The translations under genes were made by a program, and so were the position numbers. This document shows positions 248-45,383 of a stretch of 45,510 nucleotides of DNA, one piece after another. How positions within the stretch are numbered: position 1 is the stretch's first letter; the number at the start of each line of letters is the position of its first letter. The stretch covers positions 1-45,510 of IMG/VR virus record IMGVR_UViG_3300037722_000182; one strand, written 5' to 3'. The notes below the pieces were generated by a model that did not search any database, had not been told where the DNA came from, and was given only the letters and a program-made list of their open reading frames with translations. The stretch comes from a virus (Duplodnaviria > Caudoviricetes).

Positions 248-2142
248 TCTGCCGCTCCTCCTTTGAAGTACGGATACGTAACATACGTTCCGGCAGTGTG
301 TTGTGATACTATTCCAATATTTGTCCCGGTATTGCATGGGTTAGTTGGATCACTAGTAAACGTGTAATCAGGTGTTCCTAAATCAGATGGGCCTGTTCCT
401 GTTTTACCCAACCACACACTAAATGTTGTGTCGTTATTGATGCCTGAAACTTGAGCTACAAGCCTAGTTGGTGTAGTAATTGCAGCTATCTCAATATATG
501 TCAACGATGCTTCATTTGTTTCTTTTAAATTTTCAATAAGAGTAGATCCATTATAAACTTTAACCGATAGCCTTGTTATGGTTTCAGAGTACCTATACAA
601 CTGCACCACGTAATAGTTTCCACTGTTGATTGTCGCATGCCTAAGCGCCAATGCATATGTTTGACCGACGACAGGGGTAGCAAGTGTAATAGTATCTGCC
701 CATTGGCACTCAACGCCAATTGATGATGATGACCTCAATAATCTGTAATAAGGTGACGTGGTCCCGGCGTTTCTAACTCCACCCCCGCCAATCTCAAAAG
801 TACTTATATCTTGATAAAAATCAGTCAGGTCAGTAAATGTTTTATCAACAACTACAGTACTAGGAGTAGAACATGCTCCCGAAGGAGGAACATAGGTAGA
901 TTGATTATCTATAAGTTTGCTTGTTCCAGTAATTGAAAGCAACTCCGCTCCTGTATCTACTGACTTAATACCGTCCCCTACTTGAGCGTACCTTAAATAA
1001 CACACATCATCTTGTTCGATAGGTGAAGCGAAGTCGTATAATAAATTCTTCCCACCTGAACCGGATGCGTAAGTAGGTTCTATGCTCGCCCCCTTAATAG
1101 CGCAGTCAACAAATACGTTACCGCTTCCTGCCGTTCCAAACTCAAGGCTCATAAGAGAGGACAAAGTTATACCTTCACCTGTGCTATCTATGACAACTGT
1201 TGATAGTGTCGGATTTAAGATTGTACCCGATAGATTGTTTATTTGGTTTTGAAGGTCAACAAGTTTCTCCGCTATGTTTATGTCTATATTGTTTAGATAC
1301 GCTATCTCGGTTGCGGTTATAGTAGCTGGAAAATCTGTTATATCTGCCAATGCGATAGTTCTACTTATAGCTTCAGATATAGCATTGAAAGCAATCTCAA
1401 CCCCATTCTGATATAGAAATAGTTCGCCGTCATACCCTTGTACACCATATAAGCCGGTATAGTCTTTTTTAACTGTTACGTTTGGATTTATGACTATTCC
1501 CCTCTCACCATCAGCAGCCGCTGTGGTTACACTTCCTGTAGTAGTTACGTTACCCGCTACATCTTCAGTCATAGAAGAAGTCTTTATTAGCGCTCCGGTG
1601 GTCCCATCGAACTTAGCAAACTGATTATCTACAGATGCAACAGGGCCTACAACTGTTCCATCCCCCGATCCTATCTCCCACCCAACTTCAGCTTCAAACT
1701 TTGCCTGAGTGTTTATGTCTGGTATACGGACAAGATTAGAATCAATAGGCTCGTACAGTGAGTTGGTGGTAGTTAGAGTTATAAAACCTGAATCATTCGT
1801 AAGCTGAGATAACGCATATGGAACTACCTTCGCAGTATTAAGCACAATGGCTTGTGCCTGTGCAGGAGTAATTCCTACTTTAGCATTGTTAGTTACTATG
1901 TCGGCAGCTTGTTGTGAAGTTATACCAACCTTCGCAGTATTAACCGAAATTACTGCGTCTTGTGCTAAGTCTTTCTGTTGAAGATCGTTAAAGTTGAAGT
2001 TTAAGATGTTGCGCACAGTACCCGCTTTAACTGAACCATCAGGCGCACCTGCGGGGACCTCTACTACCGCTGCATAACTGTTGCAAAACAAAAACAAAAC
2101 TACAACTAACATGTTAGTTACAACTCTACCAATACTCTTCAT
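244..2142 (-). CDS. ~632-aa tail-fibre/adhesin-like protein with an N-terminal signal-peptide-like segment
   Basis: Likely start 2142 (ATGA overlap); MKSIGRVVTNMLVVVLFLFCNSYA; fibre-type motifs NTAKVGIT repeats, SQLTNDSGFIT, GDGTVVGPVASVDNQFAKFDGTTG; beta-rich C-terminus. Confidence 0.6.
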   Translation of the reverse strand: MKSIGRVVTNMLVVVLFLFCNSYAAVVEVPAGAPDGSVKAGTVRNILNFNFNDLQQKDLAQDAVISVNTAKVGITSQQAADIVTNNAKVGITPAQAQAIVLNTAKVVPYALSQLTNDSGFITLTTTNSLYEPIDSNLVRIPDINTQAKFEAEVGWEIGSGDGTVVGPVASVDNQFAKFDGTTGALIKTSSMTEDVAGNVTTTGSVTTAAADGERGIVINPNVTVKKDYTGLYGVQGYDGELFLYQNGVEIAFNAISEAISRTIALADITDFPATITATEIAYLNNIDINIAEKLVDLQNQINNLSGTILNPTLSTVVIDSTGEGITLSSLMSLEFGTAGSGNVFVDCAIKGASIEPTYASGSGGKNLLYDFASPIEQDDVCYLRYAQVGDGIKSVDTGAELLSITGTSKLIDNQSTYVPPSGACSTPSTVVVDKTFTDLTDFYQDISTFEIGGGGVRNAGTTSPYYRLLRSSSSIGVECQWADTITLATPVVGQTYALALRHATINSGNYYVVQLYRYSETITRLSVKVYNGSTLIENLKETNEASLTYIEIAAITTPTRLVAQVSGINNDTTFSVWLGKTGTGPSDLGTPDYTFTSDPTNPCNTGTNIGIVSQHTAGTYVTYPYFKGGAAE

Positions 2143-2585
2143 ATTCCGTCCTCCGGCCATGCTTGATCGTCTGTGAACCATGCGTCATCGTCTTCAGGCC
2201 AATACCCTGTATCGGATAATGTTGAACCTGCACTTAAAAAAGACAATCTGACCCAAGGCGAAAACCTCTCAGTATCTTCTATTCTAACCCATACATCTTG
2301 TAACTGATACCCGTAAAGCACTTCTTGGGAGATGTACTCCCCATCATCTCTATCTACATATCTGATAGGTTCGTTGTACCCTACGTGCCCTTTCCTCCTA
2401 TGAAGAACTTGAACTATTTGTCCAGGGTATGAAGAGGTTGTATCCCAAGATAGCGTAAACCTATTTGTACTGGTAGCTATATGTATCATAGTAAGAGGCT
2501 CAAAATCATCTTCATACCTCGGAGGTAATGGAGGACCATTAGAAACTAAGCTACATGCTCCGTCTGCTAAAAGTTCACATGCCAT
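2139..2585 (-). CDS. Hypothetical protein, possible FN3/Ig-like fold, in the tail region
   Basis: 148-aa ORF tightly coupled to its neighbours; FTLSWD...VWVRIED...SPW pattern. Confidence 0.55.
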   Translation of the reverse strand: MACELLADGACSLVSNGPPLPPRYEDDFEPLTMIHIATSTNRFTLSWDTTSSYPGQIVQVLHRRKGHVGYNEPIRYVDRDDGEYISQEVLYGYQLQDVWVRIEDTERFSPWVRLSFLSAGSTLSDTGYWPEDDDAWFTDDQAWPEDGI

Positions 2586-2587
2586 AG

Positions 2588-2995
2588 TTATGCCCTCTGT
2601 ACCTGTTGACCTGCTTCTCTGCTCATTAACTTTGTAATCGCGTCTTGACGGTCCTTGTGAAACACCAAACCGTCAAGTACGATAGGAAGCAATAACGTTC
2701 TATCATTTTCAAGATGAAAGTAACGAAAACCCTCGGCTACCCCATCGCCAACACATGTAAGAGTTTTCCAACGTCCACCGGTAACTTTATACTCCACGGT
2801 ATAAGGGTCAAGAGGTTCAACCGTATTACGATTTCCGTATATCAGAACCTCTGAATTTTTTGTTATGTGAATCAGTCTATCATCTTTTGTGTGAAGTACG
2901 TGCATCAAAGGTTGGCTAACCTCACCTACTGATTCTATAGTCGTCCAGAACCATTTGCCTACTACCCTATACTTTAGCTTACAAGATTTCTTCAT
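2588..2995 (-). CDS. Hypothetical protein with an internal domain duplication, downstream of the tail fibre
   Basis: Likely start 2995 (TAATG overlap); KLKYRVVGKWFWTTIESVGE resembles TVEYKVTGGRWKTLTCVGD. Confidence 0.6.
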   Translation of the reverse strand: MKKSCKLKYRVVGKWFWTTIESVGEVSQPLMHVLHTKDDRLIHITKNSEVLIYGNRNTVEPLDPYTVEYKVTGGRWKTLTCVGDGVAEGFRYFHLENDRTLLLPIVLDGLVFHKDRQDAITKLMSREAGQQVQRA

Positions 2996-4473
2996 TATAT
3001 CACCTTTTCTATATACCAGCAAGATAAAAATCTTGGCCTATTCTCCGCATAAGTAGCTGCACCTGTGTTAGGTGTAGAAGCTACACCTGAATCTACAACT
3101 GATGGCCCCGCACTGTTCGCCGCACTGGAACTTCCTGAATTAGCTGCGCTCGAGCCCCCCGTAGCTCCGTGATTATGGGAACTCCCGCTTCCAGCCGCAG
3201 TGGTACTTTTCGCAGAGCTACTCGTAAAACCGTAGTGTCCGTAAAAATCGCCTGACTCATATATACTAGCTACTCCGTCTGTTGAATTGTACCCATGTGT
3301 ATGTGAGGGAATCTGTGCAGTAGTTAAGGTCAACGATCCGGTAGTATGTGTATGCACAATAGTATGTGTATGAGGGATAGCGTGTAAATGATAGATATCA
3401 TGGTCATGCTGCATACCATGGTAGTGTTCCATGGTGTTATTTCCACCGATAGCCCCTGCTGAACTGCTGCCCTGTATGTACCTATTATCAGTAAGGTTAG
3501 CTAGATACCTACCTGTACCTTCATACACAGGAGAACCTGTTACATTACAAGCCGCCCCGTTGCAAACGTACCATCCCGAAGTATTTATTCGTGTATTAAT
3601 AGTTGTAGCATCATTTCCTATAACGTTGGTAAAGCCCCCGTTAGAAGCGTTAGTGAAATAACCCCCTTTGAAGGCTATTATAGCCCCTACGGGAACAAAG
3701 TCACTTGCCACACCTAAAGCTATCTGAGCATTTTCATAAGCTGAAGCTGCGCAGTTTGCTGTATTCTGTGCATTCTCTGCCGTGTTCGCTTCAGCTATAG
3801 CGCAAGACTGCTCGTTAGCAATAGTTATGTCTCTTGCCTCCTCCACTATCTGACGAGTTTCGATAGTAGAAGCTAAAGCTTCCTCTGCTGCCGCTTGTGC
3901 AGCTACCGCTAAGTCTTTTATCTGCGTTACCGTGTCAACGTCAAGGGCAAGAATCCAATAGCCTAAGGCTAGATCGGCAGCAAAAGTAGCTCCCGCAGTG
4001 TGGGCTATCTGACAAAGATACCAGTTACCATTCTCCAAAGATACCAAGTCACGTATTACATACCGTGCGCCAGACGCCCAAAGACCCTTCCAGTTGCTTA
4101 TAGATAAAACGTCATCGAAGCTTGCGTTTATCTGCTGGATCATCATAACAATCCGATCTTGTGACTTCTCCAACAACTCCATATCCATATCATCGGAGTT
4201 TACCCAATCGACATTTTGCTCAAGGAACAGCTTACGCTTTATATACAGCGTTCCGGTAGTACCATACGCAGTAGAAGCCACGGTAACGCTACCCCCTACT
4301 TCAGGGGCCAAAGTGGTAGCCGTGAAGTCGGTAGTCGGTAATTGAGTCGGAATACCGTTTGTATCTACGTGGGTAATTTCCATATTGTCTGTATCGTACA
4401 ATAGGAAATCAAAACTATACACGCCGGGGCCGGTATATAATCGGGAAACAAGGGGTGTTACATCGGTTAGCAT
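2995..4473 (-). CDS. Tail fibre protein
   Basis: T7 gp17-like N-terminal adaptor (YSFDFLLYD...LEKSQDRIVMMIQQ), coiled coil, collar-like VPVGAIIAF..GWYVCNG, HxH repeats, ENRPRF C-terminus. Confidence 0.85.
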   Translation of the reverse strand: MLTDVTPLVSRLYTGPGVYSFDFLLYDTDNMEITHVDTNGIPTQLPTTDFTATTLAPEVGGSVTVASTAYGTTGTLYIKRKLFLEQNVDWVNSDDMDMELLEKSQDRIVMMIQQINASFDDVLSISNWKGLWASGARYVIRDLVSLENGNWYLCQIAHTAGATFAADLALGYWILALDVDTVTQIKDLAVAAQAAAEEALASTIETRQIVEEARDITIANEQSCAIAEANTAENAQNTANCAASAYENAQIALGVASDFVPVGAIIAFKGGYFTNASNGGFTNVIGNDATTINTRINTSGWYVCNGAACNVTGSPVYEGTGRYLANLTDNRYIQGSSSAGAIGGNNTMEHYHGMQHDHDIYHLHAIPHTHTIVHTHTTGSLTLTTAQIPSHTHGYNSTDGVASIYESGDFYGHYGFTSSSAKSTTAAGSGSSHNHGATGGSSAANSGSSSAANSAGPSVVDSGVASTPNTGAATYAENRPRFLSCWYIEKVI

Positions 4474-4501
4474 TTGTTTATCTCCTTAACTAACGTGTTA
4501 G

Positions 4502-7500
4502 TTACTCTGCATCGGGATTCTGTGAAAAAATAGCACCTGCCATGTCTCCTTCTACAACGTTCTGAGCCGTCCTTGTGAACCTCTGAACAGGTATACCGTG
4601 TCCGGTAAACACTGTAACAGCTTGTAACGCCGCTGCGTAATCGTCCAAATCAAGCTCTTTATCTTTGGTAAATTTCTCAGCTATCTTCTCTATGTCGCTT
4701 ACGGTATCTGCAAAAGTTCCATCTAACTCGTAGCGTCTTAACCCTAACGCTCTCCTGAAAGCTTCAGTAACTACCGTTCCGACTGCGTAGGTAGCACCGA
4801 AAGGGCCAAGCATAACTGCTATTAACTGAGTCTTTAACTTATCCCCGTCATTCCCACCTGATATAGCGTTACCTACCGCAGCGAAGATAGAAGGGACTAA
4901 AATGTGGTAGATAAATATAGTCTTAGCAAATTGCTTCTTGGTTATCTTACCCGCCGCTAAGTCTCTAACAGCTTCTATTTCCTGACGTAAAGCTTGTACT
5001 GGTCCAGTAGAATACATAGTAAGAAGCTGTGCCGCTGAACCCCCTCTCTGTATAGCCGACAGCTCTTGCATTGTTCCGGATTGCTGCGTTTTCTCAGATA
5101 ACTCGAACGCTTTTTGAAGCGCCTCTTTAGTGGTATACGTTTTCCCGGTATCCGGGTTTACCTGAGTGCGTAGATGCTCTTTCATTATCCAACTTCCTTG
5201 AGCTATCGCCAGAGCATCACCAATTTGTACGTTAAGGGTAAGCAGATTAGACAAAACAGGGTTAAGCTTAAACTTGCTATAATCAGAAGAAGCCGTAGCC
5301 TGTTTCAAATCTCGGTCAATTAGATTCTTCCTGTTTTGTAAGTAGTTCGTTTTAAACATCTCTTCTACATGCTTAACCGGATTAGTCCAGAATTTTAAAG
5401 TACCCTTCATAAACGCTGTAGCGGGCATATGCTGCCAGTACTGAACACCTGAAATCTGCTGCTTGAAGAAGACGCTGGTAGAAGCCCCAATAGATGAACG
5501 TACAAATGCGCTTCTAAACCTATCCATTAAAGGAAACTGAGTAGCAGTAACTATCCCATCTGCCAAAACATCGTCAAGTGCGGAGGTTATGTTGCGATAA
5601 AGCTCCGGGCTATACTCTATCTCTATTGCTCTGCGTATGTCTTTATCATCTAGCACCATCTTTGCCAAACGTCCTTGTTCTGCGAACGCTTTGAAGTGAG
5701 CCATTTCCTCCACGTAAGACGAGTACAAAGATAAATCGCCTTGGAAATGTAGCTGATACCTTTCAGCGTTCTTCACCCTCTCCTTTATACTCTTAGCCGA
5801 CAAAGGCGTTTTTCGTATTGAGTCATCGTGATTAAACTGAGTATACTTGTTAGCGTTATCCAACCTCTCATTCAGGTCAAGGTAATGCTTAGAACGTATC
5901 GGAACATAGTTCTCTACTCGGTTAAGAGGAACCCCAAACACCCTTTCGTACACTTCATTTACGCTGTTGTACTGATCGCCCGAATTAAAGTACCCCTTCA
6001 GCATTTCAGCAAAAGCTATGTCCTCATTAGATAACGTGTTTTCTAAATTGGCAAGTATATCTTCGTAAGCTCTGGTAGCGTCACCAACCGCAGCGAGAAT
6101 TTCCTCGTCAGTCATTTTATCATTTACCTTACTTCGTAGATCGGTAAACATGTTAACTAACCTGTTAGTTAGCTTTTCGTCTTGCGCATACATCCATATC
6201 TGACGAAGCTCGCTTTTGGAAAACAAAACTCCTGCACCAATATCGTGTACTCTCTGTGAGTCTTCTTTCCACTTGCCGTACATCTTATAAGAACTGTTTA
6301 TACCAAAAGCTTCTTGGTACATAGCTATCATCTTATTCTGTTCGTTGCGTACTTCCGTAGACTTATTCTGTTTTGCCTGAAAGAAGTTAGTTATCTTGGA
6401 TAACTTTGAGTCCACTAAAGGAGAGTAGCTTGAGGCTATCTTTACCAGCCCACCTAACCCAAAGATATACTTCTCTCCTATTGTTCCTGTGGCTATTCTT
6501 TCTTTCAAAGACTTTTGCTTCTGTCTTTCTTTATGTAAACGGTTAGTGTCCTCTATAGGGGAATCAACTAAATTACCACCGTTTATCTCATGGATCAAGT
6601 CACCTTTAGCCTGATCTATGGCGGCTTTTACCCGCATAACCGGAGAGTTCTTTGTCTCTCCTGCTAGGAGGGCTTTAATGTCATCGTTCAAATGACTGAG
6701 AGTTTTTAACCCAAAGATGTTACGTGATACTGCACCATCTAAGAAACGGTTTATTATGTAGTCTACTTCATTGGTAACAAAGTCGTGGAGAAAGAACCCT
6801 TCTCCTAAACGTTCATCATACAGTTTCCGTATCTTCTTATCCGTATTTGCATTACCCAATACTTCGTAAACTTTACGTAGCATCGTAGCTAACTCAGGAT
6901 TTATACGTACTTGTGCTTTGCCGCTTGCAGTAGAAGGTTGACCACGTTTAAGCTTCTTGAGTATACTCTTACGCATAGCTTTGTGCTTTCTCTGCGTAGC
7001 GAACCTGTTTCTCTCTCTTGCTAAAAAAGCTTTCATGTGGTCCCTCGCTATCTTGTATCCGTGTAAATCCCCGGCATCAAACATTTGTCTCATGGATTTT
7101 ATGAGTGCTTTAGCGTGTTCCCTTGCAACCTGACTTTCAGTTAATCCTTTTGTAGCTTTCCCCGCCGTATCTGTATAATAAGAGTTCAGTGCTCTTTGCG
7201 CAGCCTCACGCTGTTTCTTCAGGCGTAACGCCTCCTCTTCTATGGTGTCCTCTTCACGCCGCTTCTGATTCAGAACATCGTTCTGCTCGCCTTGTGCCTC
7301 TAACCCTTCTTTCGTTCTAATAACCGGAGCTGTCTGCGCTGCTTGGTAGGCTTGTTGTACGTCCTCTGGAAGTAAAGAAGTAGTGAAAAAGCTTACACCC
7401 TCTTTATCTTTAAAGTAGTGTTTACCTGCCGTGTCCACTATGTAATCTAAGTCGGCACTTATGCTCTTTGCTACCTTAGTTCCCTCTTCTTTACTTTGGG

Positions 7501-9517
7501 TAAGTTCGTTTCGATATACTTCTTTATCTGATAACCCTTTAAATTGTGGATAAGACACCGAGTTGTTTGAAGCAACTTCTTTACGAACCAACAAGCTATC
7601 ATAGACCTTTACCATTTTAGGAGGTATGGCTACATCTATATCCGAACCACGGATAGCTTTATATATGCCAATAAGCCAAGAATGTAGTTTACCAAAAAGA
7701 GTTTCAAGTTTTTGCGTAGGCGCTTTTCCGGTAGACATATAGTTCTCCCACCCTCTAGCAAACTTCTCTTCCGCTTGAACGTCCCACTTAGACCCTTTCT
7801 CCATGCCGACAAACTCATCGGCTATAGCCGCCATATCACCTTGAAGGTCACGACGAAAAACGTGTCCTAGTTCATGTATAACTGAAGAGAGGTCGCCATT
7901 ACTAAAAGCGCTTATTATAATTCTATTATCTTCTGTGAAGGTTACGTAGGAATTTCTCTCCTGATCTTCTACTCCGAGATTCTCGAACTCAAGACCCTTC
8001 TGCTCTATATACTTGGTAGTGGTTACTCCCATAGCTTGCGCTCTGGCCCCTACTATCTCTTCAATGGCATTGAACTGTTCGTCGTCTTGAAGGAAGTCTG
8101 ATAAACCTACGAAGAAGTTAGCCGCCTTATCATCTAAGGAGTTATACAACCTGTTATCTAAGTCATCTATAGCTGAGTCTAAATCTTCATCAGCCACTAT
8201 GATAAGGTCGTCTATATCTCCGTCTTTTACGTCTGTTCCTTTGATTATCGAATCGTTCCTTACCCTGCTTACTTCGGCTTGAGCTATAGGTGCGCCTTTA
8301 ACTAACGTGTTAGTTACCTCGTCAGTAATATCGGCCAATGGTTTATCCGAGTTTTCTTTTACTATCGTGTTGTTCTGCTGTACCTGATACTGGTTGTCGG
8401 CTTCTATAGACGCAACTACCTGCGCTTGTTTCTTATCTTTCAGGAAACGTTGGGTCTCGACAGGTATCTTCACAAGAGTAGAAGGGGTCATCATACCACC
8501 TGACGCAAGTATACCTTGTCGTGCCGCTTTCTTCGCTTCCACGTAGTCCAGCACATCGTCAAGAGTTTCAGTAAACTCTGAACCCTTCACTTCTGCAAAC
8601 TTCTTTCTTGCCATGTGTCCAGTTACTTGCTCTACGATTGTCTGCGCCCACTCGGTAGCACCTTCACCCGCTATGGAAGTAATACGTTCGGCAACCGTAG
8701 CTGATACTCCTACGGCACTTATGAGTACGCCTATATCCCCAACCGTTTCAAGAGCGGCATAAGCGTAGGCCATTTTAGCCGCCATAGGTGCAGCTATAGC
8801 AAGAGGTATTGGTTCCTTCCCTTCAGCGGGTTTTAACATCTGAAACATCAACTCGCCTTTACCCATATTGTATGAAGCCTCATACATACGTGCAGGAACG
8901 CCTACTTTAAAACCTACCCCTGCACCTAGGACCATTCCACCTGTTACTGTTATAGGTGAAGCTATCTCTCCGGTAGGTGCGGCCATTGCGATACCTGCCA
9001 AAGCGCCCACCCCCGCTCCTGAAAGTACGTCCTTGGTAACACCAGGAGCCGCTTCAGTGAGCATAGTTTTCATAGTACCAACACCTTCTGCGGTAGCTCT
9101 GGCTACTTCATGCAGTATGCCGTTGTCCGGGTATTCCAAAGGAAGCTCTGCTCTCTTCTTCAACGCCTCATCGTACAGTACCCCCGCTTCTTCTAAGTAA
9201 TCGGTATCTTCAGCGGAGTTCACATTAGACATAACTAGGTTAGCTCTTGACATTTTCTCCATATAGTCATAGTGAACGCCCATTACTTCTAAAATAGAAG
9301 CCCTTTTACCTCTGTGAACAGGATCACTTTGGGCAATCATATCTTTGAACACCCTATCTCCGGGAGTAGATTTAGGGTCGAAGATAGTATCCGTTGTAGC
9401 TGCCTCTACTGCGGCTTGGCGTATCTCTTCATCCGAATATGTACCTATAGGCGCACCCGTTCGCTGGTCGGTATTATCAACTTGCGGTAATGGGTTAACT
9501 AACGTGTTAGTTGTCAT
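4502..9517 (-). CDS. Large internal virion (ejection) protein with a zincin-like HExxH motif
   Basis: 1671 aa at the position of T7 gp16; VIHELGHVF...EEKFARGWENY. Confidence 0.7.
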   Translation of the reverse strand: MTTNTLVNPLPQVDNTDQRTGAPIGTYSDEEIRQAAVEAATTDTIFDPKSTPGDRVFKDMIAQSDPVHRGKRASILEVMGVHYDYMEKMSRANLVMSNVNSAEDTDYLEEAGVLYDEALKKRAELPLEYPDNGILHEVARATAEGVGTMKTMLTEAAPGVTKDVLSGAGVGALAGIAMAAPTGEIASPITVTGGMVLGAGVGFKVGVPARMYEASYNMGKGELMFQMLKPAEGKEPIPLAIAAPMAAKMAYAYAALETVGDIGVLISAVGVSATVAERITSIAGEGATEWAQTIVEQVTGHMARKKFAEVKGSEFTETLDDVLDYVEAKKAARQGILASGGMMTPSTLVKIPVETQRFLKDKKQAQVVASIEADNQYQVQQNNTIVKENSDKPLADITDEVTNTLVKGAPIAQAEVSRVRNDSIIKGTDVKDGDIDDLIIVADEDLDSAIDDLDNRLYNSLDDKAANFFVGLSDFLQDDEQFNAIEEIVGARAQAMGVTTTKYIEQKGLEFENLGVEDQERNSYVTFTEDNRIIISAFSNGDLSSVIHELGHVFRRDLQGDMAAIADEFVGMEKGSKWDVQAEEKFARGWENYMSTGKAPTQKLETLFGKLHSWLIGIYKAIRGSDIDVAIPPKMVKVYDSLLVRKEVASNNSVSYPQFKGLSDKEVYRNELTQSKEEGTKVAKSISADLDYIVDTAGKHYFKDKEGVSFFTTSLLPEDVQQAYQAAQTAPVIRTKEGLEAQGEQNDVLNQKRREEDTIEEEALRLKKQREAAQRALNSYYTDTAGKATKGLTESQVAREHAKALIKSMRQMFDAGDLHGYKIARDHMKAFLARERNRFATQRKHKAMRKSILKKLKRGQPSTASGKAQVRINPELATMLRKVYEVLGNANTDKKIRKLYDERLGEGFFLHDFVTNEVDYIINRFLDGAVSRNIFGLKTLSHLNDDIKALLAGETKNSPVMRVKAAIDQAKGDLIHEINGGNLVDSPIEDTNRLHKERQKQKSLKERIATGTIGEKYIFGLGGLVKIASSYSPLVDSKLSKITNFFQAKQNKSTEVRNEQNKMIAMYQEAFGINSSYKMYGKWKEDSQRVHDIGAGVLFSKSELRQIWMYAQDEKLTNRLVNMFTDLRSKVNDKMTDEEILAAVGDATRAYEDILANLENTLSNEDIAFAEMLKGYFNSGDQYNSVNEVYERVFGVPLNRVENYVPIRSKHYLDLNERLDNANKYTQFNHDDSIRKTPLSAKSIKERVKNAERYQLHFQGDLSLYSSYVEEMAHFKAFAEQGRLAKMVLDDKDIRRAIEIEYSPELYRNITSALDDVLADGIVTATQFPLMDRFRSAFVRSSIGASTSVFFKQQISGVQYWQHMPATAFMKGTLKFWTNPVKHVEEMFKTNYLQNRKNLIDRDLKQATASSDYSKFKLNPVLSNLLTLNVQIGDALAIAQGSWIMKEHLRTQVNPDTGKTYTTKEALQKAFELSEKTQQSGTMQELSAIQRGGSAAQLLTMYSTGPVQALRQEIEAVRDLAAGKITKKQFAKTIFIYHILVPSIFAAVGNAISGGNDGDKLKTQLIAVMLGPFGATYAVGTVVTEAFRRALGLRRYELDGTFADTVSDIEKIAEKFTKDKELDLDDYAAALQAVTVFTGHGIPVQRFTRTAQNVVEGDMAGAIFSQNPDAE

Positions 9518-11570: not shown

Positions 11571-11582
11571 TATATAAACCTA

Positions 11583-12404: not shown

Positions 12405-12435
12405 AATATTACCCCTATATTGCGTGTATTGTCTA

Positions 12436-14271: not shown

Positions 14272-14272
14272 T

Positions 14273-14860: not shown

Positions 14861-14863
14861 TGC

Positions 14864-15343: not shown

Positions 15344-15364
15344 ATTTTCACCTATAATAGTTAT

Positions 15365-30398: not shown

Positions 30399-30424
30399 CT
30401 AACATGTTAGTTGGAGGTCACAAG

Positions 30425-35102: not shown

Positions 35103-35164
35103 CCGGCTACCTGTTAGTTGGGGTTAATACCCTTAACTAACAGGTTAGTTAGGGAGGTTACACA

Positions 35165-36484
35165 ATGTCAGAACAGCATAGTAAATTAATGTCCCCTTCC
35201 AGTTCAGGGCTATGGATACCCTGTACTGCAATGCCTCAAGCTCTGCTCGATTCCGAGTACGTGGATTCAACAGGGCCGGAGGCTGGAAGGGGGACAATAC
35301 AGCACGATGTAGCAAAGAGAGTAACAGAAGGAAAGATGACACTAGCTTCAGCCTGTCCAACAGAGGTTGATGGGGAGGAGTGGGACCAAGTAAAGACAGC
35401 GGTAGAGGCTATCTATACCTTCCTTCAGTCAGAAGGTGTAACGGTTAGAACAAAGTATTTGTTCCTTGAAAAGCCTGTCTCTTTCAGTGGGTGGCGTAAG
35501 GATTGCTTTGGAACAGGTGACTTTATATACTTTGATCCGGATACCTTAACTCTTTATGTTTTCGATTACAAGTTTGGAAGAGTGCTGGTAATAGTGGAGT
35601 GGAACAGTCAACTGCTTATATACGGACTGGCGGCAATAGAGACATTGATAAGAGAGGGGGTTATAACAGAAGTAAAGAACCTAGTTATTGGTATCTCTCA
35701 GCCGAAAGTATCTTCACTCTTGCAAACGCACCGCCTTACGGTAGCCGAGGCTTTGGATTGGGATAAGAATGTTTTAATCCCTGCGCAGAAAGCAATAGTA
35801 GAAGGTAAGGGTAAGTTTAATCCCGGCGGTCACTGTACTGCTAAGTATTGCAAAAACGCCCGTAACTGTTCAGCGTTCAAGGAGCAAGGTAGTAAGGATA
35901 TGGAGTTGTTTGTTGCGGATTATCCTGTTGTACCTACCAAGGACACGATAAACTCTTTATCAGTAATGGAGTTATCTGACCTTGTTCAAAAATCTCTTGT
36001 CGTAGAAGGAGTTATAAAGGAAGTAAAGGACAGGGCAAAGAGCCTCCTCGAATCGGGAATGCCTGTTCCCGGGCTGAAGCTGGTAGAAGGTAGGGGCAAA
36101 AGGGAATGGACTTCAGAAGATGAAGCTATCACTTTCCTCACGGAGCAGAAAGTACCCGATGAAGAGATGTTTAACGTGTCAGTTAAGACGCTGCCCCAGG
36201 CTGAGAAACTTCTGAAGAAGGAGTTGAAGTTCTCTTGGGTCAAGGAAGGGTTCAAGAAACTTACTAAGTGGGTTCCAGGCTCGCCGGTATTGGCGCTTGA
36301 ATCTGATAAAAGGAGTGCGGTACTACCTGAAAGTAAAAAGGAGGAGGTAGAAATAGAACTGGAAAAAACTGTAGAGGAATGGGTGTCGATGTCAACGGAT
36401 ACCAGTATAGACGATCTTCTAAGCGAGCTTGACTCCCCCAAAGGGGAGTCGAACGAACTGGACGATCTATTGAACAGTCTGTAA
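35165..36484 (+). CDS. DUF2800 Cas4-like PD-(D/E)XK nuclease
   Basis: HSKLMSPSS..W..C, GT..H, FGTGD, DYKFG, NSQLLIY, GGHC..YC. Confidence 0.85.
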   Translation: MSEQHSKLMSPSSSGLWIPCTAMPQALLDSEYVDSTGPEAGRGTIQHDVAKRVTEGKMTLASACPTEVDGEEWDQVKTAVEAIYTFLQSEGVTVRTKYLFLEKPVSFSGWRKDCFGTGDFIYFDPDTLTLYVFDYKFGRVLVIVEWNSQLLIYGLAAIETLIREGVITEVKNLVIGISQPKVSSLLQTHRLTVAEALDWDKNVLIPAQKAIVEGKGKFNPGGHCTAKYCKNARNCSAFKEQGSKDMELFVADYPVVPTKDTINSLSVMELSDLVQKSLVVEGVIKEVKDRAKSLLESGMPVPGLKLVEGRGKREWTSEDEAITFLTEQKVPDEEMFNVSVKTLPQAEKLLKKELKFSWVKEGFKKLTKWVPGSPVLALESDKRSAVLPESKKEEVEIELEKTVEEWVSMSTDTSIDDLLSELDSPKGESNELDDLLNSL

Positions 36485-36532
36485 CTAACAAGTTAGTTAA
36501 ACTCGAAAAATCGAAAACTCGGAGAACCGAAA

Positions 36533-37231
36533 ATGAAAGCATCTGAAATAAAAGCAAAAAGAGTAGAGTCACAAGACAATGTTGTACGCATACTGATAGC
36601 CGGTCGTGCATCCTATGCCAACCTGTTGGAAGCGGTGTTCGATGATCCTGAAAAAACTGCGGAGGGTGATCGGAAGTCTTACAAGAGTGCTATCTTGTTT
36701 CATAAGACTGTCGGTGCTGATGTGCTGGCAATAGTAAACAGAGCAGTTGCCGATGCAGTTAAGATCGGCATAACGAAATTTTGGGGAGGTAAGAAGCCCC
36801 CGGTTCTGCAACTCCCGGTTAACAACGGGGATATAAAGTTTCAAGAGGATGATTCTAAGTACGCCGCCTATCAGGGTATGTTCCACCTCTCGGCAAAGCG
36901 ACAAGAGAAGTTCAGTCGTCCTATCCTTAAAGCCTACGGTAAGACGGTTACTTCAGGCGGGATAATCGAATCTGGTGACTGGTGTGTATGGGATATTTCT
37001 TTCTACCCATTTAACAACAAGAAGAAAGGGGTAGCCGTAGGTCTTAACGGCGTTACCCTGTTGAAAGAAGGTGAACGGTTCGGTGGGGGACCTTCTGAAA
37101 GCAGTATCAGTGATGAAGCAAGCTCCCTTTACGGTGACATTACCGGAGCAGGGGGCGATGCGTTTGATGACATACTTGGTATGGGGGCAGGTAAGACTGA
37201 TGATGTTGAGGACCTGTTAGCTGGACTGTAA
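36533..37231 (+). CDS. DUF2815 single-stranded DNA-binding protein
   Basis: RASYANL, GVAVGLNGV..EGERFGG, acidic tail. Confidence 0.85.
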   Translation: MKASEIKAKRVESQDNVVRILIAGRASYANLLEAVFDDPEKTAEGDRKSYKSAILFHKTVGADVLAIVNRAVADAVKIGITKFWGGKKPPVLQLPVNNGDIKFQEDDSKYAAYQGMFHLSAKRQEKFSRPILKAYGKTVTSGGIIESGDWCVWDISFYPFNNKKKGVAVGLNGVTLLKEGERFGGGPSESSISDEASSLYGDITGAGGDAFDDILGMGAGKTDDVEDLLAGL

Positions 37232-37251
37232 CTAACTGTTAGTTAAGTTTG

Positions 37252-37795: not shown

Positions 37796-39783
37796 TGAAC
37801 GTAACTAACGCCGACATTTTCATTGACTTCGAGACACGCAGCAAACTTCCGTTAGGGGGCAAGAGCGGGGTAGGTGCTTGGCGTTACTCGCTCGATCCAA
37901 GTACAAAGGTTCTGTGTCTTTCCTATGCGTTCGGGAACGATGAACCAAGCATATGGATAGAGGGTCAGCCGCCTCCTCGTCCACTTATGGCGGCTATTGA
38001 ATCAGGTAAGAAGGTGCATGGCTGGAACTCAATGTCGTTTGAGCGAGCTATCTTTCACAACATATGTGTACCTAGACTTGGTTGGGTTGAGCCTCACCCG
38101 GAACAGTATCGCGACACGATGCTAGACGCTTTAACTCTTGCGTTACCAGCTAAACTGGAAGACTGTTGCAAGGCGTTAGGTACGTATGAACAGAAGATGG
38201 ATGCAGGTAAGAAGCTTATAGACTTACTTTGTAAACCCATATCTACAGGAAAAAAGAAAGGTCAGTTTAGAGAAAGGGAAGAACACGTAAAAGAGTATGC
38301 TGAGTTGTACACCTACGGCAAGCAGGACGTCAGAACTGAGAGGGGGGTTTTTAAAAAGCTACCGTACACATTGACAGGAAAAGAAAGAGAATTTTGTTTG
38401 TTAATAATGCGGATGAATGAAAGGGGTCTGCCGATAGACATAGGATTAGTAGAAGCTATCATTGAAGGGTTAGAGGCTGAATCAGTTAGACTTTGCGAGC
38501 AGTTTAGCTCTTTAACAGGGATAGACAAGCCAACTAAACGAGCGCAGTTTAAGGCATGGTTACTTTCTCAAGGTATCGAACTTCCAGATATGCAAGCTAC
38601 TACCTTAGAGGAGTTAGACTTCAGCAAGTTTACACCATTAGTAAGAGAAGCTATGAACTGTTACAAAGATGGTAACAATGCTTCGACTGCTAAGTTTGCC
38701 AAGATAAAAGAAATGCTATGTCCTGATGGAACAGTTAAAAATAATCTAATTTTCAACAAGGCAAGTACGGGAAGGTTAGCGGGGGCGGGGTTCCAAGCAC
38801 AGAACTTACCTAAATCTAAAGCTAAGAATCCACAGTTTATAAAAGGTTGTTTCGTTGATCGGGACTACCTCTTCCTTCAGTTGTATTGCGGTATTCAGAA
38901 CGCCGCTAAGATGATGATTCGTCCCATAATAAAAGCTCCTGCGGGGATGAAGCTTATGGGTGGTGATTTGAAGCAGATAGAAGCAAGAGGCGCACCTTGG
39001 ATTTGTGGTGAATGGGATTTGCTTGACAACTTTCGAAAGAACATAGACCTGTACAAAGCAACTGCCGCTCGAATGTACAACTCTATAGTTGATATGATAG
39101 ACAAAGAGGAGAGGCAACTTGGTAAGGTAGCTGTTTTGCTTGGTCAATTCGGTGGAGGATACCGAGCAGTACTGCGAGGATGCAAGAAACACAAGTTGGA
39201 AATGTCGGACATTGCCGCTAAGAGGCTTATAACTGCATTTAGGAAAAGTCGTCCAAAGCTTACTGCTATGTGGGAAAACTTCGGAGAAGCGGCTATGACT
39301 GCTTGCGAGGAAGGTGGAAGGGTATATGTACAAGATACCCGAAATCTAGTATACTTTGAAAGGGAAGGCCTGTTCTTGTTTATGTACTTGCCAAGTGGTA
39401 GGCGGTTAAGCTTCTACTCTCCTGAAGTTAGGGAAGAACCTTTCTTTGGTAGGATGCAAGAAAACGTAACTGCTATGTGGGTGGACAATACTCCAGGAGG
39501 TAATCATAAGTGGGCAAGGAGAGTTGTAACTGGACCGAGTTTCTTTCAGTCTGCTGTGCAAGCTTCTTGCAGAGACATACTTTTCGAAGGTCACATGGAA
39601 GTAGAGAGAAGAGGCTACCCGTTAATACTCTCAGTACACGATGAAGGTATAAGCTTAGTTCCTGATGACCCCGCTTACAACCTGAGAGATTATGAAGAGG
39701 CTATGACTATGCCTAATGATTGGTGCCCTGAAATGCCTATAGGTTCCGATTGTTGGGAAGCGTACCACTACGATAAGAAGTAA
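37795..39783 (+). CDS. Family A DNA polymerase with 3'-5' exonuclease (APSE-like)
   Basis: IDFET, STGRLAG..QNLP, DLKQIEAR, RQLGK, SVHDE. Confidence 0.95.
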   Translation: MNVTNADIFIDFETRSKLPLGGKSGVGAWRYSLDPSTKVLCLSYAFGNDEPSIWIEGQPPPRPLMAAIESGKKVHGWNSMSFERAIFHNICVPRLGWVEPHPEQYRDTMLDALTLALPAKLEDCCKALGTYEQKMDAGKKLIDLLCKPISTGKKKGQFREREEHVKEYAELYTYGKQDVRTERGVFKKLPYTLTGKEREFCLLIMRMNERGLPIDIGLVEAIIEGLEAESVRLCEQFSSLTGIDKPTKRAQFKAWLLSQGIELPDMQATTLEELDFSKFTPLVREAMNCYKDGNNASTAKFAKIKEMLCPDGTVKNNLIFNKASTGRLAGAGFQAQNLPKSKAKNPQFIKGCFVDRDYLFLQLYCGIQNAAKMMIRPIIKAPAGMKLMGGDLKQIEARGAPWICGEWDLLDNFRKNIDLYKATAARMYNSIVDMIDKEERQLGKVAVLLGQFGGGYRAVLRGCKKHKLEMSDIAAKRLITAFRKSRPKLTAMWENFGEAAMTACEEGGRVYVQDTRNLVYFEREGLFLFMYLPSGRRLSFYSPEVREEPFFGRMQENVTAMWVDNTPGGNHKWARRVVTGPSFFQSAVQASCRDILFEGHMEVERRGYPLILSVHDEGISLVPDDPAYNLRDYEEAMTMPNDWCPEMPIGSDCWEAYHYDKK

Positions 39784-39811
39784 CTAACACGTTAGTTAAG
39801 GAGGCGGTAAG

Positions 39812-40419: not shown

Positions 40420-41771
40420 AATATACTCCGCTATCTTGTCAAGCTGAAGGGACTAAGTTCATATTGAAGAACACACATTGCGGAGTTTTAATAACAATGG
40501 GAGTAGGTAAGACCGTATCAGCTTTAACGGCTATCGAGGAGCTACTGTTTAACTACGTGTTAGTTAAGCGTGTGTTGGTAGTAGCTCCTAAAAGAGTAAC
40601 CTTGATAACGTGGCCTGATGAGATAGGCAAATGGAGGCATACAAAGAACCTTACCTATACCGTTTTACATGGGGATGAGAAGCTATACCGACTGAAGCAC
40701 GAAGCTTCAAAGGTAGACATAACCTTGATAAACTATGAAGGGTTACAATGGTTGTGGAATAACAAGGATATAATGCCAAACTTCGATATGTTGGTGTTAG
40801 ATGAATCTACCTACATAAAGAACCCATCTTCTAATAGAACAAAGCTCGTCCACAAGTTGTCAAGGTTCGTAAAGAGAGTTGTGATATTGACAGGTACGCC
40901 AAAGCCAAATGGTGAAGCTAACCTTTGGAGTCAGGTATATGTGCTGGATAGAGGCGATAGGTTAGGAAGGGGGATAACTAAGTTCCGTGAACAGTACATG
41001 CTTCAAAAAGCTGAGAGGGTATGGGTTCCCAAGTCAGGAGCAAGGAAGGAGATACTCGACAAGATAAAACACTTGGTTCTTGTTGTGGAAGATACGAGCG
41101 GAGTCGGTTTACCTGATGTGAAGGATAACATAGTATCAGTTATTCTACCTGCACCCGTGCAGAAGCTATACCGTAAAGCTTGCAACGATCTACTGTTTGA
41201 GATTGACGGAGAGAAGGTAATAATTAATAACCCGCAATCACTAACTCAGAAGTTGAGACAAATAGCATCAGGCTTCTTGTATACTGATAGCGGAGTTGTA
41301 AAGATACATGACGAAAAACTTAAAGCTCTGGATGAACTGATAGAAGGTATATCAGGTAACGTTCTTGTAGGGATAAACTTCAAGCAGGACATAACTCTCA
41401 TCCGAGAGCATCTAGGCTACGAGGTTCCTGCTTTGTATTCAGGTACGAGTGACGGTCAAAGTAACAAGTGGATACGTAGCTGGATGGAAGGTAAGATACC
41501 TGTTATGCTCGTACACCCGGCGGCTATGAGTCACGGTCTGAACTTGCAGGGCGGAGGAAAGGATATTGTATGGTACTCTTTAACCTGGGATTTAGAGTAT
41601 TACCTTCAACTTATAGCGAGACTGAGAAGAAGGGGAAGCAAGTATGCTTGTATAATAAACCACATAATACTAGCAACAGGTACATTGGACGAATGGCTTT
41701 TAAAGTCGCTGAGTAGTAAGGGAAAGATTCAAGAGGAAGCAATAGAATATCTAAGGAGGAGTAAAAAATGA
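40416..41771 (+). CDS. SNF2-like DEAD/H helicase
   Basis: MGVGKT, LDEST, LTGTP, HGLNLQ, Q...R..RRG. Confidence 0.92.
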   Translation: MKYTPLSCQAEGTKFILKNTHCGVLITMGVGKTVSALTAIEELLFNYVLVKRVLVVAPKRVTLITWPDEIGKWRHTKNLTYTVLHGDEKLYRLKHEASKVDITLINYEGLQWLWNNKDIMPNFDMLVLDESTYIKNPSSNRTKLVHKLSRFVKRVVILTGTPKPNGEANLWSQVYVLDRGDRLGRGITKFREQYMLQKAERVWVPKSGARKEILDKIKHLVLVVEDTSGVGLPDVKDNIVSVILPAPVQKLYRKACNDLLFEIDGEKVIINNPQSLTQKLRQIASGFLYTDSGVVKIHDEKLKALDELIEGISGNVLVGINFKQDITLIREHLGYEVPALYSGTSDGQSNKWIRSWMEGKIPVMLVHPAAMSHGLNLQGGGKDIVWYSLTWDLEYYLQLIARLRRRGSKYACIINHIILATGTLDEWLLKSLSSKGKIQEEAIEYLRRSKK

Positions 41772-42013
41772 AGGTATCGGACCTATCAGTGTTAGTAAGA
41801 AGGGCAAGAGAAAAGAGGTCACAGTCGGCTTGTGTGGCTGCTGTGCTGGTAGCATACGCCGAACACTTCAAGGGTATGTCTCCTTTGGAAGTATGTGCTA
41901 CTCTTGAAATAGCTGATACGTACAAAGACCATGTGCGTATGTTGCTGCAAGTCCCAACAGAGCTGGAAGCTATTGGGTTCAAGGTAACTAACGTGTTAGT
42001 TAAGGAGGGCTAG
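41768..42013 (+). CDS. Hypothetical protein
   Basis: ATGA coupling, AGGAGG RBS. Confidence 0.6.
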   Translation: MKVSDLSVLVRRAREKRSQSACVAAVLVAYAEHFKGMSPLEVCATLEIADTYKDHVRMLLQVPTELEAIGFKVTNVLVKEG

Positions 42014-42721: not shown

Positions 42722-42749
42722 ACCCGTAACTAACTTGTTAGTTACGGGT
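42722..42749. terminator. Extended palindrome at the convergence of the two arms
   Basis: ACCCGTAACTAAC-TT-GTTAGTTACGGGT; no U-tract. Confidence 0.5.
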
Positions 42750-43041: not shown

Positions 43042-43316
43042 TACTCCCCCTTATCTAAAGCAGCCGACACATCTTTACGTGTAGTGGCTCTATTAAAGTA
43101 CATATTCGCAACTACCATAATTACTGTGACCACTATGGTAATATAGAACAGTACTAGGTCGGAGATAAAGAAGTCAGGGCTTTGTGAGCGCACAGTAGCG
43201 ACCAAAGAGACAAGACCCATAAAGACCTTATTCGCTATCTCGATTATCGCTTTCCACTTCGCAGGGTCGCTTAGTTGGTTCCCCACTTTTACGGCGTTTA
43301 CTAAATCCTTTAACAT
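43041..43316 (-). CDS. Holin-like two-TM protein
   Basis: Two hydrophobic segments and a charged C-terminus. Confidence 0.55.
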   Translation of the reverse strand: MLKDLVNAVKVGNQLSDPAKWKAIIEIANKVFMGLVSLVATVRSQSPDFFISDLVLFYITIVVTVIMVVANMYFNRATTRKDVSAALDKGE

Positions 43317-43440
43317 AGCGTTTCTCCTTAAAGAACTTTTTTATCTCTTCAAAACTGAAGGTTAATATAATCCCCTTCAAGTTTCCCATTAAGCTGATTT
43401 TCATTTCAGTACCCTATTGTTTCCTCAACTAACACGTTAG

Positions 43441-45383
43441 TTAGAAAGCTACACCGTTGAAAGAGGCTCCACTAGCTCTTACCCCAAAATCATATACCGG
43501 AGTAGGAGGTAAGTAATCTTTGATTACTATATCATCTATAACCAGACTACTTACTCCTGTGTTATTTGGTGACTGAAAGTAAATACTACCTTCGCTTACA
43601 CCAAGTGTACGGGACACTGCGAATTTTACTGTTTTGCCTCCCGGAGGTATAGTGAAGTTCATATCTCCTTGGTCTACCGTCCATACCTTAAAGTTATTGG
43701 TGGCATTTCGTATATTAGCTATTACTACAAAAGTTCCTTCACTTCCTATGTAAGGTAACGCTCTATATATATGGGCCGCAGTATTCTGATCTGAGTTCAG
43801 GCTTACTCCTCCCGTATCTAAAGATATATGATTAGGAGTGTAGGTACTCCAATCCGTAAGACCTCCTGAAAAATCCCCATTCGTAAAAAGGTTAGCACCT
43901 TCCCAATCAGTAGGTTCAGGTATATCTCGACAAGCTCCTTCATAATAATCATAACTCCACACAGTCCCACAATCCGATTCGTTACATACGGTGAACGATT
44001 CAGTGCAAGCTAAGGTATCTTCAGTAAAAGTAGCTGTAGCTGTTCTATTAGAAGATAAGTTTATAGAGCAGTTGTTAGCGTCTACGGAGTCACAGCCTGA
44101 CCAAGCGGTAAAGGTTGAATTACTGTCAGGTGTAGCTGTTAAGGTTACGTTAGTAAATTCGTTAAAGGTTGTAGCACAGGTTCCTCCACAACTTATACCC
44201 GCAGGGGTAGATGTAACTGTGCCGCTTCCTGTTCCGTCTTTAACTACCGTTAGGTCTATTTGTGGAGCGGCTACGTTGACAACCACGTTATACTCTACTC
44301 CTACGTCTTGGCATTTAACGGCATACAACTGGCTATACCCATCAGTTAATCCTGTTAAAGGCTTAGTATGTGTTGTTCCTCCTGTTGTAGTAAAGTTGGT
44401 CATACTACTATAAGCTACTCCACTGGTGTTAGCATACCTACAAGTTGCGTTAATATCCGTAGTAACACTTAAAGTAGTTGAAGTTGTTCCCGGGGGCAAG
44501 GTTGTTGTAGGCGAATGTCCCGTTATGTACACTGTGGGGTCAGATACACTCGTGCCAAATGTAATTAGTTTACCGGGGGATGCTTCCCCGGCTGAGTTGA
44601 CAACAAACAGATAGGCCGACTCTCCTGCTGCGAACTGTCCTTGGTTTACAGTCGCTTGAATAGATGACGTACCCCACACGGTAGGTGTGAGTATCGTCAT
44701 TTTTGTACAGGACATATAGTCTGACGAATTACCAATCTCAACTCTAGCCTGTGCATTTTGACCTTCGGCTACATATATATCATCTATTACTACTTGTGCA
44801 GGAGGACCACCAGTACGCCCATATCCAGGTATAGTAATTCGTGTCCAGTAATCTCCAGGCCCCAGAGTATTTCCAACCTTATTATGCTTCAATTTGATAC
44901 CAGTGGACAACATCTCCCACAATTTAACCTTACCTTGAGTAGGATCTTCTGAACCTTTTATATAGTGAGAGGACCTGAGCCAGTTCCCTTTTGCATAAGA
45001 AAGTTCACCAATCCACCCACATCCACTGGTTCTTCCTGTCGCACAAGAATTACCGGATAGATTTGCCCCATGGTAATCATCCGGCTTTGCAGCATCCCCT
45101 AAAAAACCCGGCCACATATAATCACTTCCAGTTAAACCACTACAATTACTAGCTTCGCAAAGCCATAACTTTTTAAAGTTTATCTGTGCGTCCATCCCCT
45201 CCCCAGGTTTTCCCACCCCTAATGGGTGCAACATCCACGAGGATACAAATAGCTCGGTGGCAGGAGGAAATATTAATGTTCGTTTGTAATGGTTATTGGT
45301 ATAGTAAATTGTATAGTCAGCAATAAACGCTTTATTTCCACTAAGCTTATATGTGCCTGTATACTTTGTAGTATCTGGTCTTT
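43441..45383 (-). CDS. 3' part of the ~729-aa secreted-type multidomain protein (lectin/lyase-like N-terminus, InlB B-repeat-like domain, CBM-like C-terminus)
   Basis: LTVVKDGTGSGTVTSTPAGISCGGTC...VTLTATPDSNSTFTAWSGC...ATATF; NLFTNGDFSGGLTDW. Confidence 0.75.

Follow-up and report, generated by a model that had tools for sequence, protein, structure and literature searches.

The repressor c of phiC31, a temperate, integrating phage, binds dispersed, conserved inverted repeats. Dispersed phage palindromes have been a puzzle since the report on the Cluster O mycobacteriophages (Corndog), which carry about 30 copies per genome (34 in Corndog) of a 17-bp dyad repeat with invariant 7-bp inverted arms; in the part of that report available to us, about a third of the repeats lie in genes, no integrase is present and a dimeric binder is predicted, with neither a reader singled out nor a function explained (PMC4351075). 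KorB of plasmid RK2, described in the available text as a ParB-family CTPase clamp locked by KorA, acts over up to 1.5 kb from a 16-bp operator, OB, which precedes promoters at a distance of either 4-10 bp or 45 to >1,000 bp (PMC11790492). The stoperators of Cluster A phages such as L5 are, in the excerpt at hand, asymmetric, oriented, monomer-bound 13-mers, present at more than twenty sites, at promoters and in short intergenic spaces of temperate phages (PMC9283540). Here we describe a grid of palindromic sites in the virus record IMGVR_UViG_3300037722_000182 (positions 1 to 45,510, the whole stretch of DNA analysed and hereafter called the window), a complete 45.5-kb phage genome with direct terminal repeats. 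Both the sequence and the spacing of these sites are under selection, and the product of the first early gene, E1, is a candidate for the protein that reads them.

Grid sites in the window

All 27 perfect copies of AACTAAC-N1/2-GTTAGTT that a first-pass annotation of the window had reported were recovered at the positions it gave, with a 2-nt spacer in 22 copies and a 1-nt spacer in 5; no perfect copy with a spacer of 0, 3 or 4 nt occurred in the window. With the genome masked, an order-3 Markov model predicted 0.0008 copies, and lone half-sites were found at about background frequency (6 and 10 observed vs. 4.1 and 4.6 expected). The grid of palindromes is confirmed as real. The core stood as originally described, and the true site proved longer, because a pyrimidine at position -1 and a trailing purine accompany 27 of 27 copies and extend the consensus to YAACTAAC-N1/2-GTTAGTTR. 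There were two near-perfect extras, at 27412 (one mismatch) and 40551 (one arm 1 base short). Gaps between sites ranged from 574 bp to 4,187 bp, the largest spanning the circular junction. The sites are listed below in window coordinates (N1 and N2, spacer of 1 and 2 nt; CDS, coding sequence; genes without a name are given by their coordinates; the relatives G001 and G002 and the three motif classes are treated in the next section).

2104-2119, N2 site in CDS 244-2181 (amino acid 21, TNMLV)
4488-4503, N2 site overlapping the stop of 4502-9517
6155-6170, N2 site (TNRLV) in the gene of a 1671-aa putative injection protein, codon position kept in G001 and G002
8300-8315, N2 site in the 1671-aa putative injection protein gene (TNTLV), position kept in G001 and G002
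9497-9512, N2 site in codons 2-7 of 4502-9517 and the stop of 9507-11570
11355-11370, N2 site in a 687-aa gene, position kept in G001 and G002
12784-12799, N2 site in the tail nozzle gene, position kept in G001 and G002
15798-15813, N2 site directly past the capsid gene stop
17410-17425, N2 site in the scaffold/protease gene, present in five of five orthologues with middle residue V/V/M/P/K
20784-20798, N1 site overlapping the stop of 20793-21368
22826-22841, N2 site at the terS/terL junction
23400-23415, N2 site 11 bp upstream of the leftward -35 box
24271-24286, N2 site in the 2-kb non-coding region separating the arms
25354-25368, N1 site 15 bp upstream of the -35 box driving E1, the candidate reader gene
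26930-26944, N1 site at a junction
27412-27427, one-mismatch site at the stop of 26943-27413
27894-27909, N2 site upstream of the AAA ATPase gene, inside a doubtful 54-aa open reading frame (ORF)
29039-29053, N1 site at a junction
30397-30412, N2 site overlapping the DUF2201 gene stop
32217-32232, N2 site in the 958-aa gene, column and frame kept in six of six full-length orthologues and in all three motif classes
33168-33183, N2 site, the second of the 958-aa gene
35135-35150, N2 site at a junction
36483-36498, N2 site overlapping the exonuclease stop
37230-37244, N1 site overlapping the stop of the single-stranded DNA-binding protein (SSB) gene
39782-39797, N2 site overlapping the PolA stop
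40551-40565, hybrid site in the helicase gene, one arm of class C type, also in G002
41986-42001, N2 site at the end of an 81-aa gene
42728-42743, N2 site at the convergence point of the two arms
43427-43442, N2 site overlapping the stop of 43441-45234

The ten copies named as lying in coding sequences (10 of 27) were all located there, that at 9497 also overlapping the stop of the upstream gene. T-N-x-L-V peptides occurred 10 times in the 46 ORFs tested vs. 0.25 expected, and every one of the ten is a grid site. In the codon-preserving shuffle that the annotation had suggested, the motif was nearly lost: redrawing synonymous codons kept a mean of 0.02 of the ten sites and at most 2 in 2,000 draws. 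The further observation that in-gene copies always occupy the only stop-free frame is true of the sites but carries no weight as evidence, because the 2-nt form has just one open frame and its placement is forced. The 1-nt form also has an open frame; its absence from the coding sequences of the window is therefore not forced.

Conservation at the DNA level and three motif variants

At least six relatives with a grid (G001, G002, G007, G008, G012 and G013), all syntenic with the window, were found, together with several fragments; the pattern scan of viral sequences covered 25 of 64 parts, so that relatives are under-counted. The window-type motif (class A) was present in 39 copies in G001, 29 copies in G002 and in several fragments. 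G007 and G008 carry RACTAC-N3/4-GTAGTY (class C; 25 and 11 copies, respectively), and G012 and G013 carry RACTAG-N3-5-CTAGTY (class G; 27 and 30 copies, respectively). The half-site common to the classes is YRACTA[A/C/G], and site length is 15-17. Between the window and G001, five in-gene sites lie at identical codons of proteins that are 36-67% identical; all four fixed codons are identical at five of five sites (chance 2.9e-9 from background codon identity), and the middle residue at orthologous sites varies (T, M, P, K, R, V, E). Because the fixed codons are identical while the middle residue varies, it is the DNA that is selected and not the protein, and the alignment of homologues proposed as a check on the shared TNxLV peptide thus came out with the codons kept and the palindrome intact. 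The portal and injection genes of G001 hold additional sites that are specific to this genome. The site column in the 958-aa gene is kept in all three classes, and so its position is ancestral and its sequence changed in concert with the rest of the grid.

The flanks and arms of the sites bear on how they are read. Class A halves have a pyrimidine at -1 in 132 of 132 cases, class C halves in 72 of 72 and class G halves in 103 of 114, and in classes A and C the flank is Y..R, never R..Y. Watson-Crick pairs at the variable arm positions (16/27, 24/39, 10/25 and 15/30) were close to the numbers expected under independence (14.0, 22.8, 12.8 and 15.0, respectively). A 6-bp stem closed by a loop of 3-5 nt can be drawn for every class; the hairpin is weak (mean -2.6 kcal/mol), and the spacers favour neither a strand (AC 19, GT 12 on the transcribed one) nor a stable loop. 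Hybrid sites, with one arm from each class, leave one stem position that cannot pair. The lack of arm co-variation, the strict flank, the weak hairpin and the hybrids together point to base-specific reading of two half-sites in duplex DNA, which favours, as judged from sequence, a dimer binding double-stranded DNA over a hairpin.

The annotation had also placed sites 11-15 bp upstream of both divergent -35 boxes of the window, and this arrangement was borne out: the site at 23400 ends 11 bp and that at 25354 ends 15 bp away. Sites lie 11 and 15 bp from -35 boxes in G002 and 3 bp away in G007. At junction sites of G007 and G008 the spacer often contains GAGG or AAGG, which is Shine-Dalgarno-like, followed by an A-run into the start codon.

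Even spacing of the sites

The gaps between window sites had a coefficient of variation of 0.51, compared with 0.92-0.95 under the null (random placement, P = 8.5e-5). Because 19 of the 27 sites lie at or near gene junctions, a junction-aware null was used, in which junction sites and internal sites were placed separately. The spacing was even against this null as well, in line with the evenness that had been asserted from inspection (P = 0.00025 for the window, 0.00005 for G001, 0.002 for G002, 0.0003 for G012, 0.008 for G013 and 0.06 for G007). Median gaps were 1.3-2.0 kb across the grid genomes. The density of in-gene sites in the seven genomes rose with gene length, from 0.095 per kb in genes <1 kb to 0.135 (1-1.6 kb), 0.26 (1.6-2.5 kb) and 0.52 (>2.5 kb), indicating that sites are written into genes that lack a nearby junction. 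Spacing itself is under selection, strongly enough to rewrite proteins, and since even spacing tolerates gaps of up to a few kb, the action of a site is of limited range.

The largest gaps coincide with tail-fibre regions or modules, and G008 has a site-free stretch; coverage is therefore favoured and not absolute. In that genome, positions 1-15469 hold tail-type genes mostly unlike the structural arm of the window and 0 sites, and represent either a swapped module or a chimeric contig.

A candidate reader

The genes and promoters that enter the question of the reader are as follows.

23359-23388, minus strand, sigma70-like promoter of the packaging/structural arm, TTGACA-18-TATAAT (promoter scan)
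25384-25412, plus strand, sigma70-like promoter of the early arm, TTGCAA-17-TATTAT (promoter scan)
25464-26582, plus strand, E1, the first early gene, 372 aa, candidate reader
27939-30398, plus strand, AAA_5 ATPase and DUF2201 metallopeptidase/VWA pair downstream of E1, in seven of seven genomes
31474-34350, plus strand, 958-aa protein, putative primase-helicase from motifs only
34347-34634, plus strand, Cro-like helix-turn-helix (HTH) gene, labelled by inspection, no Pfam hit

Nine of the 50 window genes turned up in every one of the six relatives (E1, AAA, DUF2201, the 958-aa gene, exonuclease, SSB, PolA, VRR-NUC and helicase), structural genes being absent only in partial genomes or below the cut-off. 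E1 alone among the nine has neither an assigned nor an inferred role as an enzyme or SSB. The protein consists of an N-terminal domain of ~80 aa, a linker rich in A, K, P and T (61%) and a C-terminal domain (aa 186-372) whose family is small, with 32 hits among 1.84 billion representatives. An AlphaFold2 (AF2) model of this domain (predicted local distance difference test score, pLDDT, 91) comprises a long helix, two hairpins, an HTH-like pair (81-90/96-124) and three C-terminal helices. The C-terminal domain was predicted to form a homodimer with a score of 0.68, compared with 0.19 for the best of three controls, in runs that agreed in at least 91% of contacts at pLDDT of at least 77; in the calibration, 20 of 30 solved homodimers attained the score mark, as did 1 of 23 monomers. 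The sequence of the second helix is VNTAAA[A/S]F, VNRA[A/S]RMF and VNRASERF in the respective classes. Within it, N101, invariant in seven genomes, and the class-tracking residues 105 (A/R/E) and 109 (R/K/M) fall outside the listed predicted interface. Distant E1 homologues, used as sole queries, led to two of two loci with the same ACTA-N6-TAGT core. Fold searches with aa 186-372 (Foldseek against PDB and BFVD; VIA wide, best Z 4.7) gave no clear match, and a search with a third E1 subgroup, A10, returned no loci. Two metagenome hits to E1, L222 and L223 (E 7e-4 over 30 aa), had 0 sites and are probable false hits.

Three binders had been put forward by the first-pass annotation, namely the HTH protein encoded at 34347, the first early protein and a host factor. 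The presence of E1 in seven of seven genomes, its predicted homodimer and its HTH-like pair make it the best of these, and on the sequence and model evidence we lean modestly toward E1 as the reader; the cases for the other two were weakened by results given below.

A distant phage with an analogous array

The same 15-mer occurs in a distant phage, G003, whose shared proteins are 24-28% identical to those of the window. Its sites form part of a TCTAA/CCTAA/ACTAA series and have no Y..R flank; because of these differences, and because the match was found by a targeted search, convergence is the probable explanation. In the G003 family, a separate and widespread group of phages (L181-L210, 30 loci, some of them near-duplicates), arrays of CTAA-N2-4-TTAG are confined to the early side and start at the first early gene, with 145 sites in the ~115 kb that begin 400 bp ahead of the gene and 6 in ~207 kb further upstream. 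That gene encodes 170-190 aa in a helical layout similar to that of E1, and the helix residues TE, TN and GN accompany the outer base T, A and C, respectively. Fold searches with the G003 first early protein gave no clear match (best Z 5.9). A residue match made by eye between E1 and G003-family helices was set aside, as homology was undetected. By analogy, the G003 family supports the view that the first early gene reads the array; the same data leave room for a shared host factor. The AAA_5/DUF2201 pair is also present in G003.

Phage genome and gene content

The phage may derive from a sediment metagenome, the run in which it is best represented; no RNA data set was listed as containing it. 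Its left arm carries the genes of a terminase, portal, capsid and nozzle of the type known from epsilon15/BPP-1 podophages, and its right arm those of an AAA_5 ATPase, a DUF2201 metallopeptidase/VWA protein, the 958-aa protein, a DUF2800 exonuclease, an Enc34-type SSB, PolA, VRR-NUC and an SNF2 helicase. Both arms are transcribed outward from the two sigma70-like promoters, which border a 2-kb non-coding region. No hit to integrase, CI, ParA or ParB was obtained in 52 window ORFs or in 109 of the 130 non-shared ORFs of the six relatives. Among cultured phages, a megablast search with the left 25 kb found no match. The 958-aa protein, inferred from its motifs to be a putative primase-helicase, had no significant Pfam or PDB sequence hit, and a search of 185,579 prokaryote genomes for its gene found no relative, so that no prophage or host was found. 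In relatives of the AAA protein with 26-31% identity (L164-L172), the stretches examined were free of iterated palindromes. DUF2201 relatives occur in 624 cultured phage records, the best ones mostly in 72-79-kb phages (27-29% identity), which we take to be N4-like. Because its relatives occur in these phages and in gridless AAA stretches, the AAA/DUF2201 pair alone is no marker of the grid.

The non-coding region contains several repeated elements. A ~52-bp repeat is present in three to four copies (about 23900-24070) within 23830-25140, about eight tandem CTTGACA units lie at about 25070-25135, and GTTGACA/TGTCAAC words are numerous in 23830-25140; these repeats possibly mark genome ends or an origin. 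Positions 24325-24340 match 15 of 16 positions of the bacterial parS consensus, and this element was not found in G001-G006 or L150. Several early genes are preceded by the start signal GGAGGTCACACCATG or close variants (e.g., 25452-25466, 26961-26976, 27449-27462 and 27926-27941). In run X5, one low-depth contig skips window positions 26958-27446, between two repeated units of site plus ribosome-binding site, which is consistent with deletion between these repeats.

Proposed mechanism and alternatives

We tentatively propose that the even, DNA-selected sites are bound by E1 dimers, which coat the genome and throttle host RNA polymerase along both arms. Each half-site YRACTA[A/C/G] would be read, in duplex DNA, by a single subunit of a two-fold dimer with enough flexibility to fit two or three spacer lengths. 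E1 would be made first, from the promoter whose -35 box lies 15 bp downstream of a site, and because of that site it would regulate itself as well as the divergent structural promoter. A bound dimer may act over ~1 kb by spreading or bridging through the long A/K/P/T-rich linker, a range that would explain why long site-free stretches are avoided and why sites enter genes only if these are long. The outcome would be a global brake of the KorB kind, with which a phage without CI or integrase paces or pauses its lytic development, and the AAA/DUF2201 pair might, speculatively, remove bound E1. Provided that E1 is the reader, silencing or pacing would rather probably be the main purpose of the grid. 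The suspicion that the sites form a genome-wide system and not a simple operator set has held up in view of the even, selected spacing and the DNA-level selection; nicking and ejection, which had been listed among its possible functions, gained no support.

A number of observations weigh against silencing by E1. The protein matches no known DNA-binding family or fold, and the atlas leads obtained for it, phage repressor c and DUF3102, were rejected because their scores (0.78-0.81) are in the chance range. The class-tracking residue T102 falls inside the predicted dimer interface. Class-tracking columns per 100 numbered 2.9 in E1, 4.1 in the AAA ATPase, 2.7 in VRR-NUC and 2.3 in PolA, and since the motif classes coincide with clades, such tracking fails to single out E1. 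The first early protein of G003 has no homology to E1 detectable by hhalign, including cropped cores compared with shuffles; within the G003 family, helix residue and outer base changed together in two of two independent pairs (p 0.5), and a single origin was not rejected (p-AU, approximately unbiased test, 0.46; 25 of 30 loci used). A promoter scan of G001, G012 and G013 found no site-adjacent promoter, and the partial genome G008 is without any site in its first 15.4 kb, which hold tail-type genes. Finally, with no integrase or partition genes present, the need for genome-wide silencing is not obvious.

E1 could also read the grid for a physical purpose, such as compaction, shielding from host nucleases or defence sensors, or ratcheting entry, which we consider somewhat unlikely. 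This explanation draws on the same spacing and E1-reader evidence as silencing does, and it suits the remoteness of most sites from any promoter, the place of E1 as first gene of the early arm, the failure to find integrase and CI, and the concentration of the largest gaps in tail-fibre modules, as if coverage were refilled after exchange; it is at odds with the sites that adjoin both main -35 boxes in two genomes, with the 15-kb site-free stretch of G008 and with the restriction of the analogous G003-family array to the early side. The reader might instead be another phage protein (the Cro-like HTH protein, the small terminase or an injected core protein), an idea that we find rather doubtful. 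The structural genes are common to all complete relatives, yet BcepC6B and phiV10, which have homologous head genes, have 0 such sites. Five of seven genomes have the HTH gene of 34347, but its profile finds nothing in G012 or G013, both complete, which have a different small HTH-like ORF before terS; the helix of the 34347 protein is not the same in G007 and G008, although these carry the same motif. A host nucleoid organiser or regulator, with the variants reflecting different hosts, appears more doubtful still. The same 15-mer in G003 beside an unrelated first early gene would fit such a protein, and the class G core appears to resemble the TrpR operator, but the commonest 18-mer (the one form used in a GTDB scan) occurred in just 12 of 185,579 species genomes, once in each, and the G003 sites, which lack the flank and belong to another series, are probably a convergence.

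Functions of the sites as nucleic acid structures or landmarks were weighed on the same evidence. If the 958-aa putative primase-helicase used them for priming or helicase loading, palindromy would serve either strand and the spacing would set fragment length, and we regard this as unlikely. The median gaps are near the size of Okazaki fragments, the 958-aa gene is present in seven of seven genomes, and all classes can be drawn as the stem and loop described above. A phage PrimPol can, according to the excerpt available, read an 8-nt motif (PMC8718748). Known PrimPol motifs, however, are 3-8 nt long and non-palindromic; a single-strand signal need not be palindromic, yet lone half-sites are not enriched, and the absent co-variation, strict Y..R flank, weak hairpins and unpairable position of the hybrid sites also count against it. 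Gridless BcepC6B fails to exclude such landmarks, because its primase is not detectably related. A role of the sites as RNA hairpins, as translation signals or in programmed nicking is highly improbable: many do overlap stop codons or ribosome-binding regions, but others lie mid-gene and in non-coding DNA, their arms do not co-vary and their spacers prefer neither a strand nor a stable loop. The known programmed nick sites of the T5 type are asymmetric.

Returning to E1 as the reader, a bolder form of the proposal, which as a whole we judge unlikely, would have E1 represent a new dimeric, sequence-specific DNA-binding fold that appears first upon infection and nucleates on the ~1.5-kb grid to give a non-integrating phage a coated, dormant or shielded genome, which the AAA+/metallopeptidase-VWA pair strips to start lysis. 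A few residues within a single helix would set the base that is read, in a reader-site code of which three variants exist, and the same design would explain Cluster O and other dyad repeats.

Comparison with known systems

Podophages like BPP-1, BcepC6B and epsilon15 have a homologous capsid (42-46% identity), and BcepC6B has the same exonuclease-SSB-PolA-nuclease-helicase gene set; these phages carry an integrase and a CI-type repressor and no grid (0 such sites in BcepC6B and phiV10), whereas the grid phages have E1, the AAA/DUF2201 pair and the grid instead. The sole link between E1 and the phiC31 repressor c is an atlas score of 0.78-0.80, which is in the chance range. With the Cluster A stoperators the grid shares the presence of more than twenty sites across a phage genome; the grid sites differ in being palindromic, unoriented (AC 19 vs. 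GT 12) and often mid-gene, in phages with no integrase or partition hit. Because stoperators are asymmetric, oriented and monomer-bound, the grid is not a stoperator system. The likeness to KorB and OB lies in a ~16-bp palindrome that is both promoter-proximal (11 and 15 bp from -35 boxes) and distal, at a spacing similar to the range of KorB. Unlike OB, the grid comprises 25-39 sites per genome and enters coding sequence, and a ParB-family reader was not indicated by any Pfam hit in these genomes or by a significant match in fold searches with E1 aa 186-372.

The first-pass annotation, which had named several analogues, missed the dyad repeats of Cluster O, a close published precedent. Like these, the window, G001 and G002 carry their sites in comparable numbers (27, 39 and 29 copies, respectively) with invariant 7-bp arms, 10 of the 27 window copies lie in coding sequence, and an integrase was not found. 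The grid differs in sequence, host range and virion type, in having two or three spacer lengths as opposed to a fixed 3-bp spacer, and in being significantly even, as opposed to denser at the right end. In a literature search that covered few subscription journals, neither the motif nor selection for even spacing was found in any paper. Should E1 prove to be the reader, its fold would be a new one for binding DNA, and it might offer phages that have neither integrase nor CI a means of pausing or protecting their genome; with three natural variants, syntenic genomes and one small, well-modelled candidate protein per variant, the grid phages make the question raised by dispersed palindromes testable. 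The grid is thus an analogue of the Cluster O repeats and not a member of that group, and what is new here are the spacing tests, the concerted change of the motif into three variants with one site position kept, and a candidate reader whose fold matches none known.

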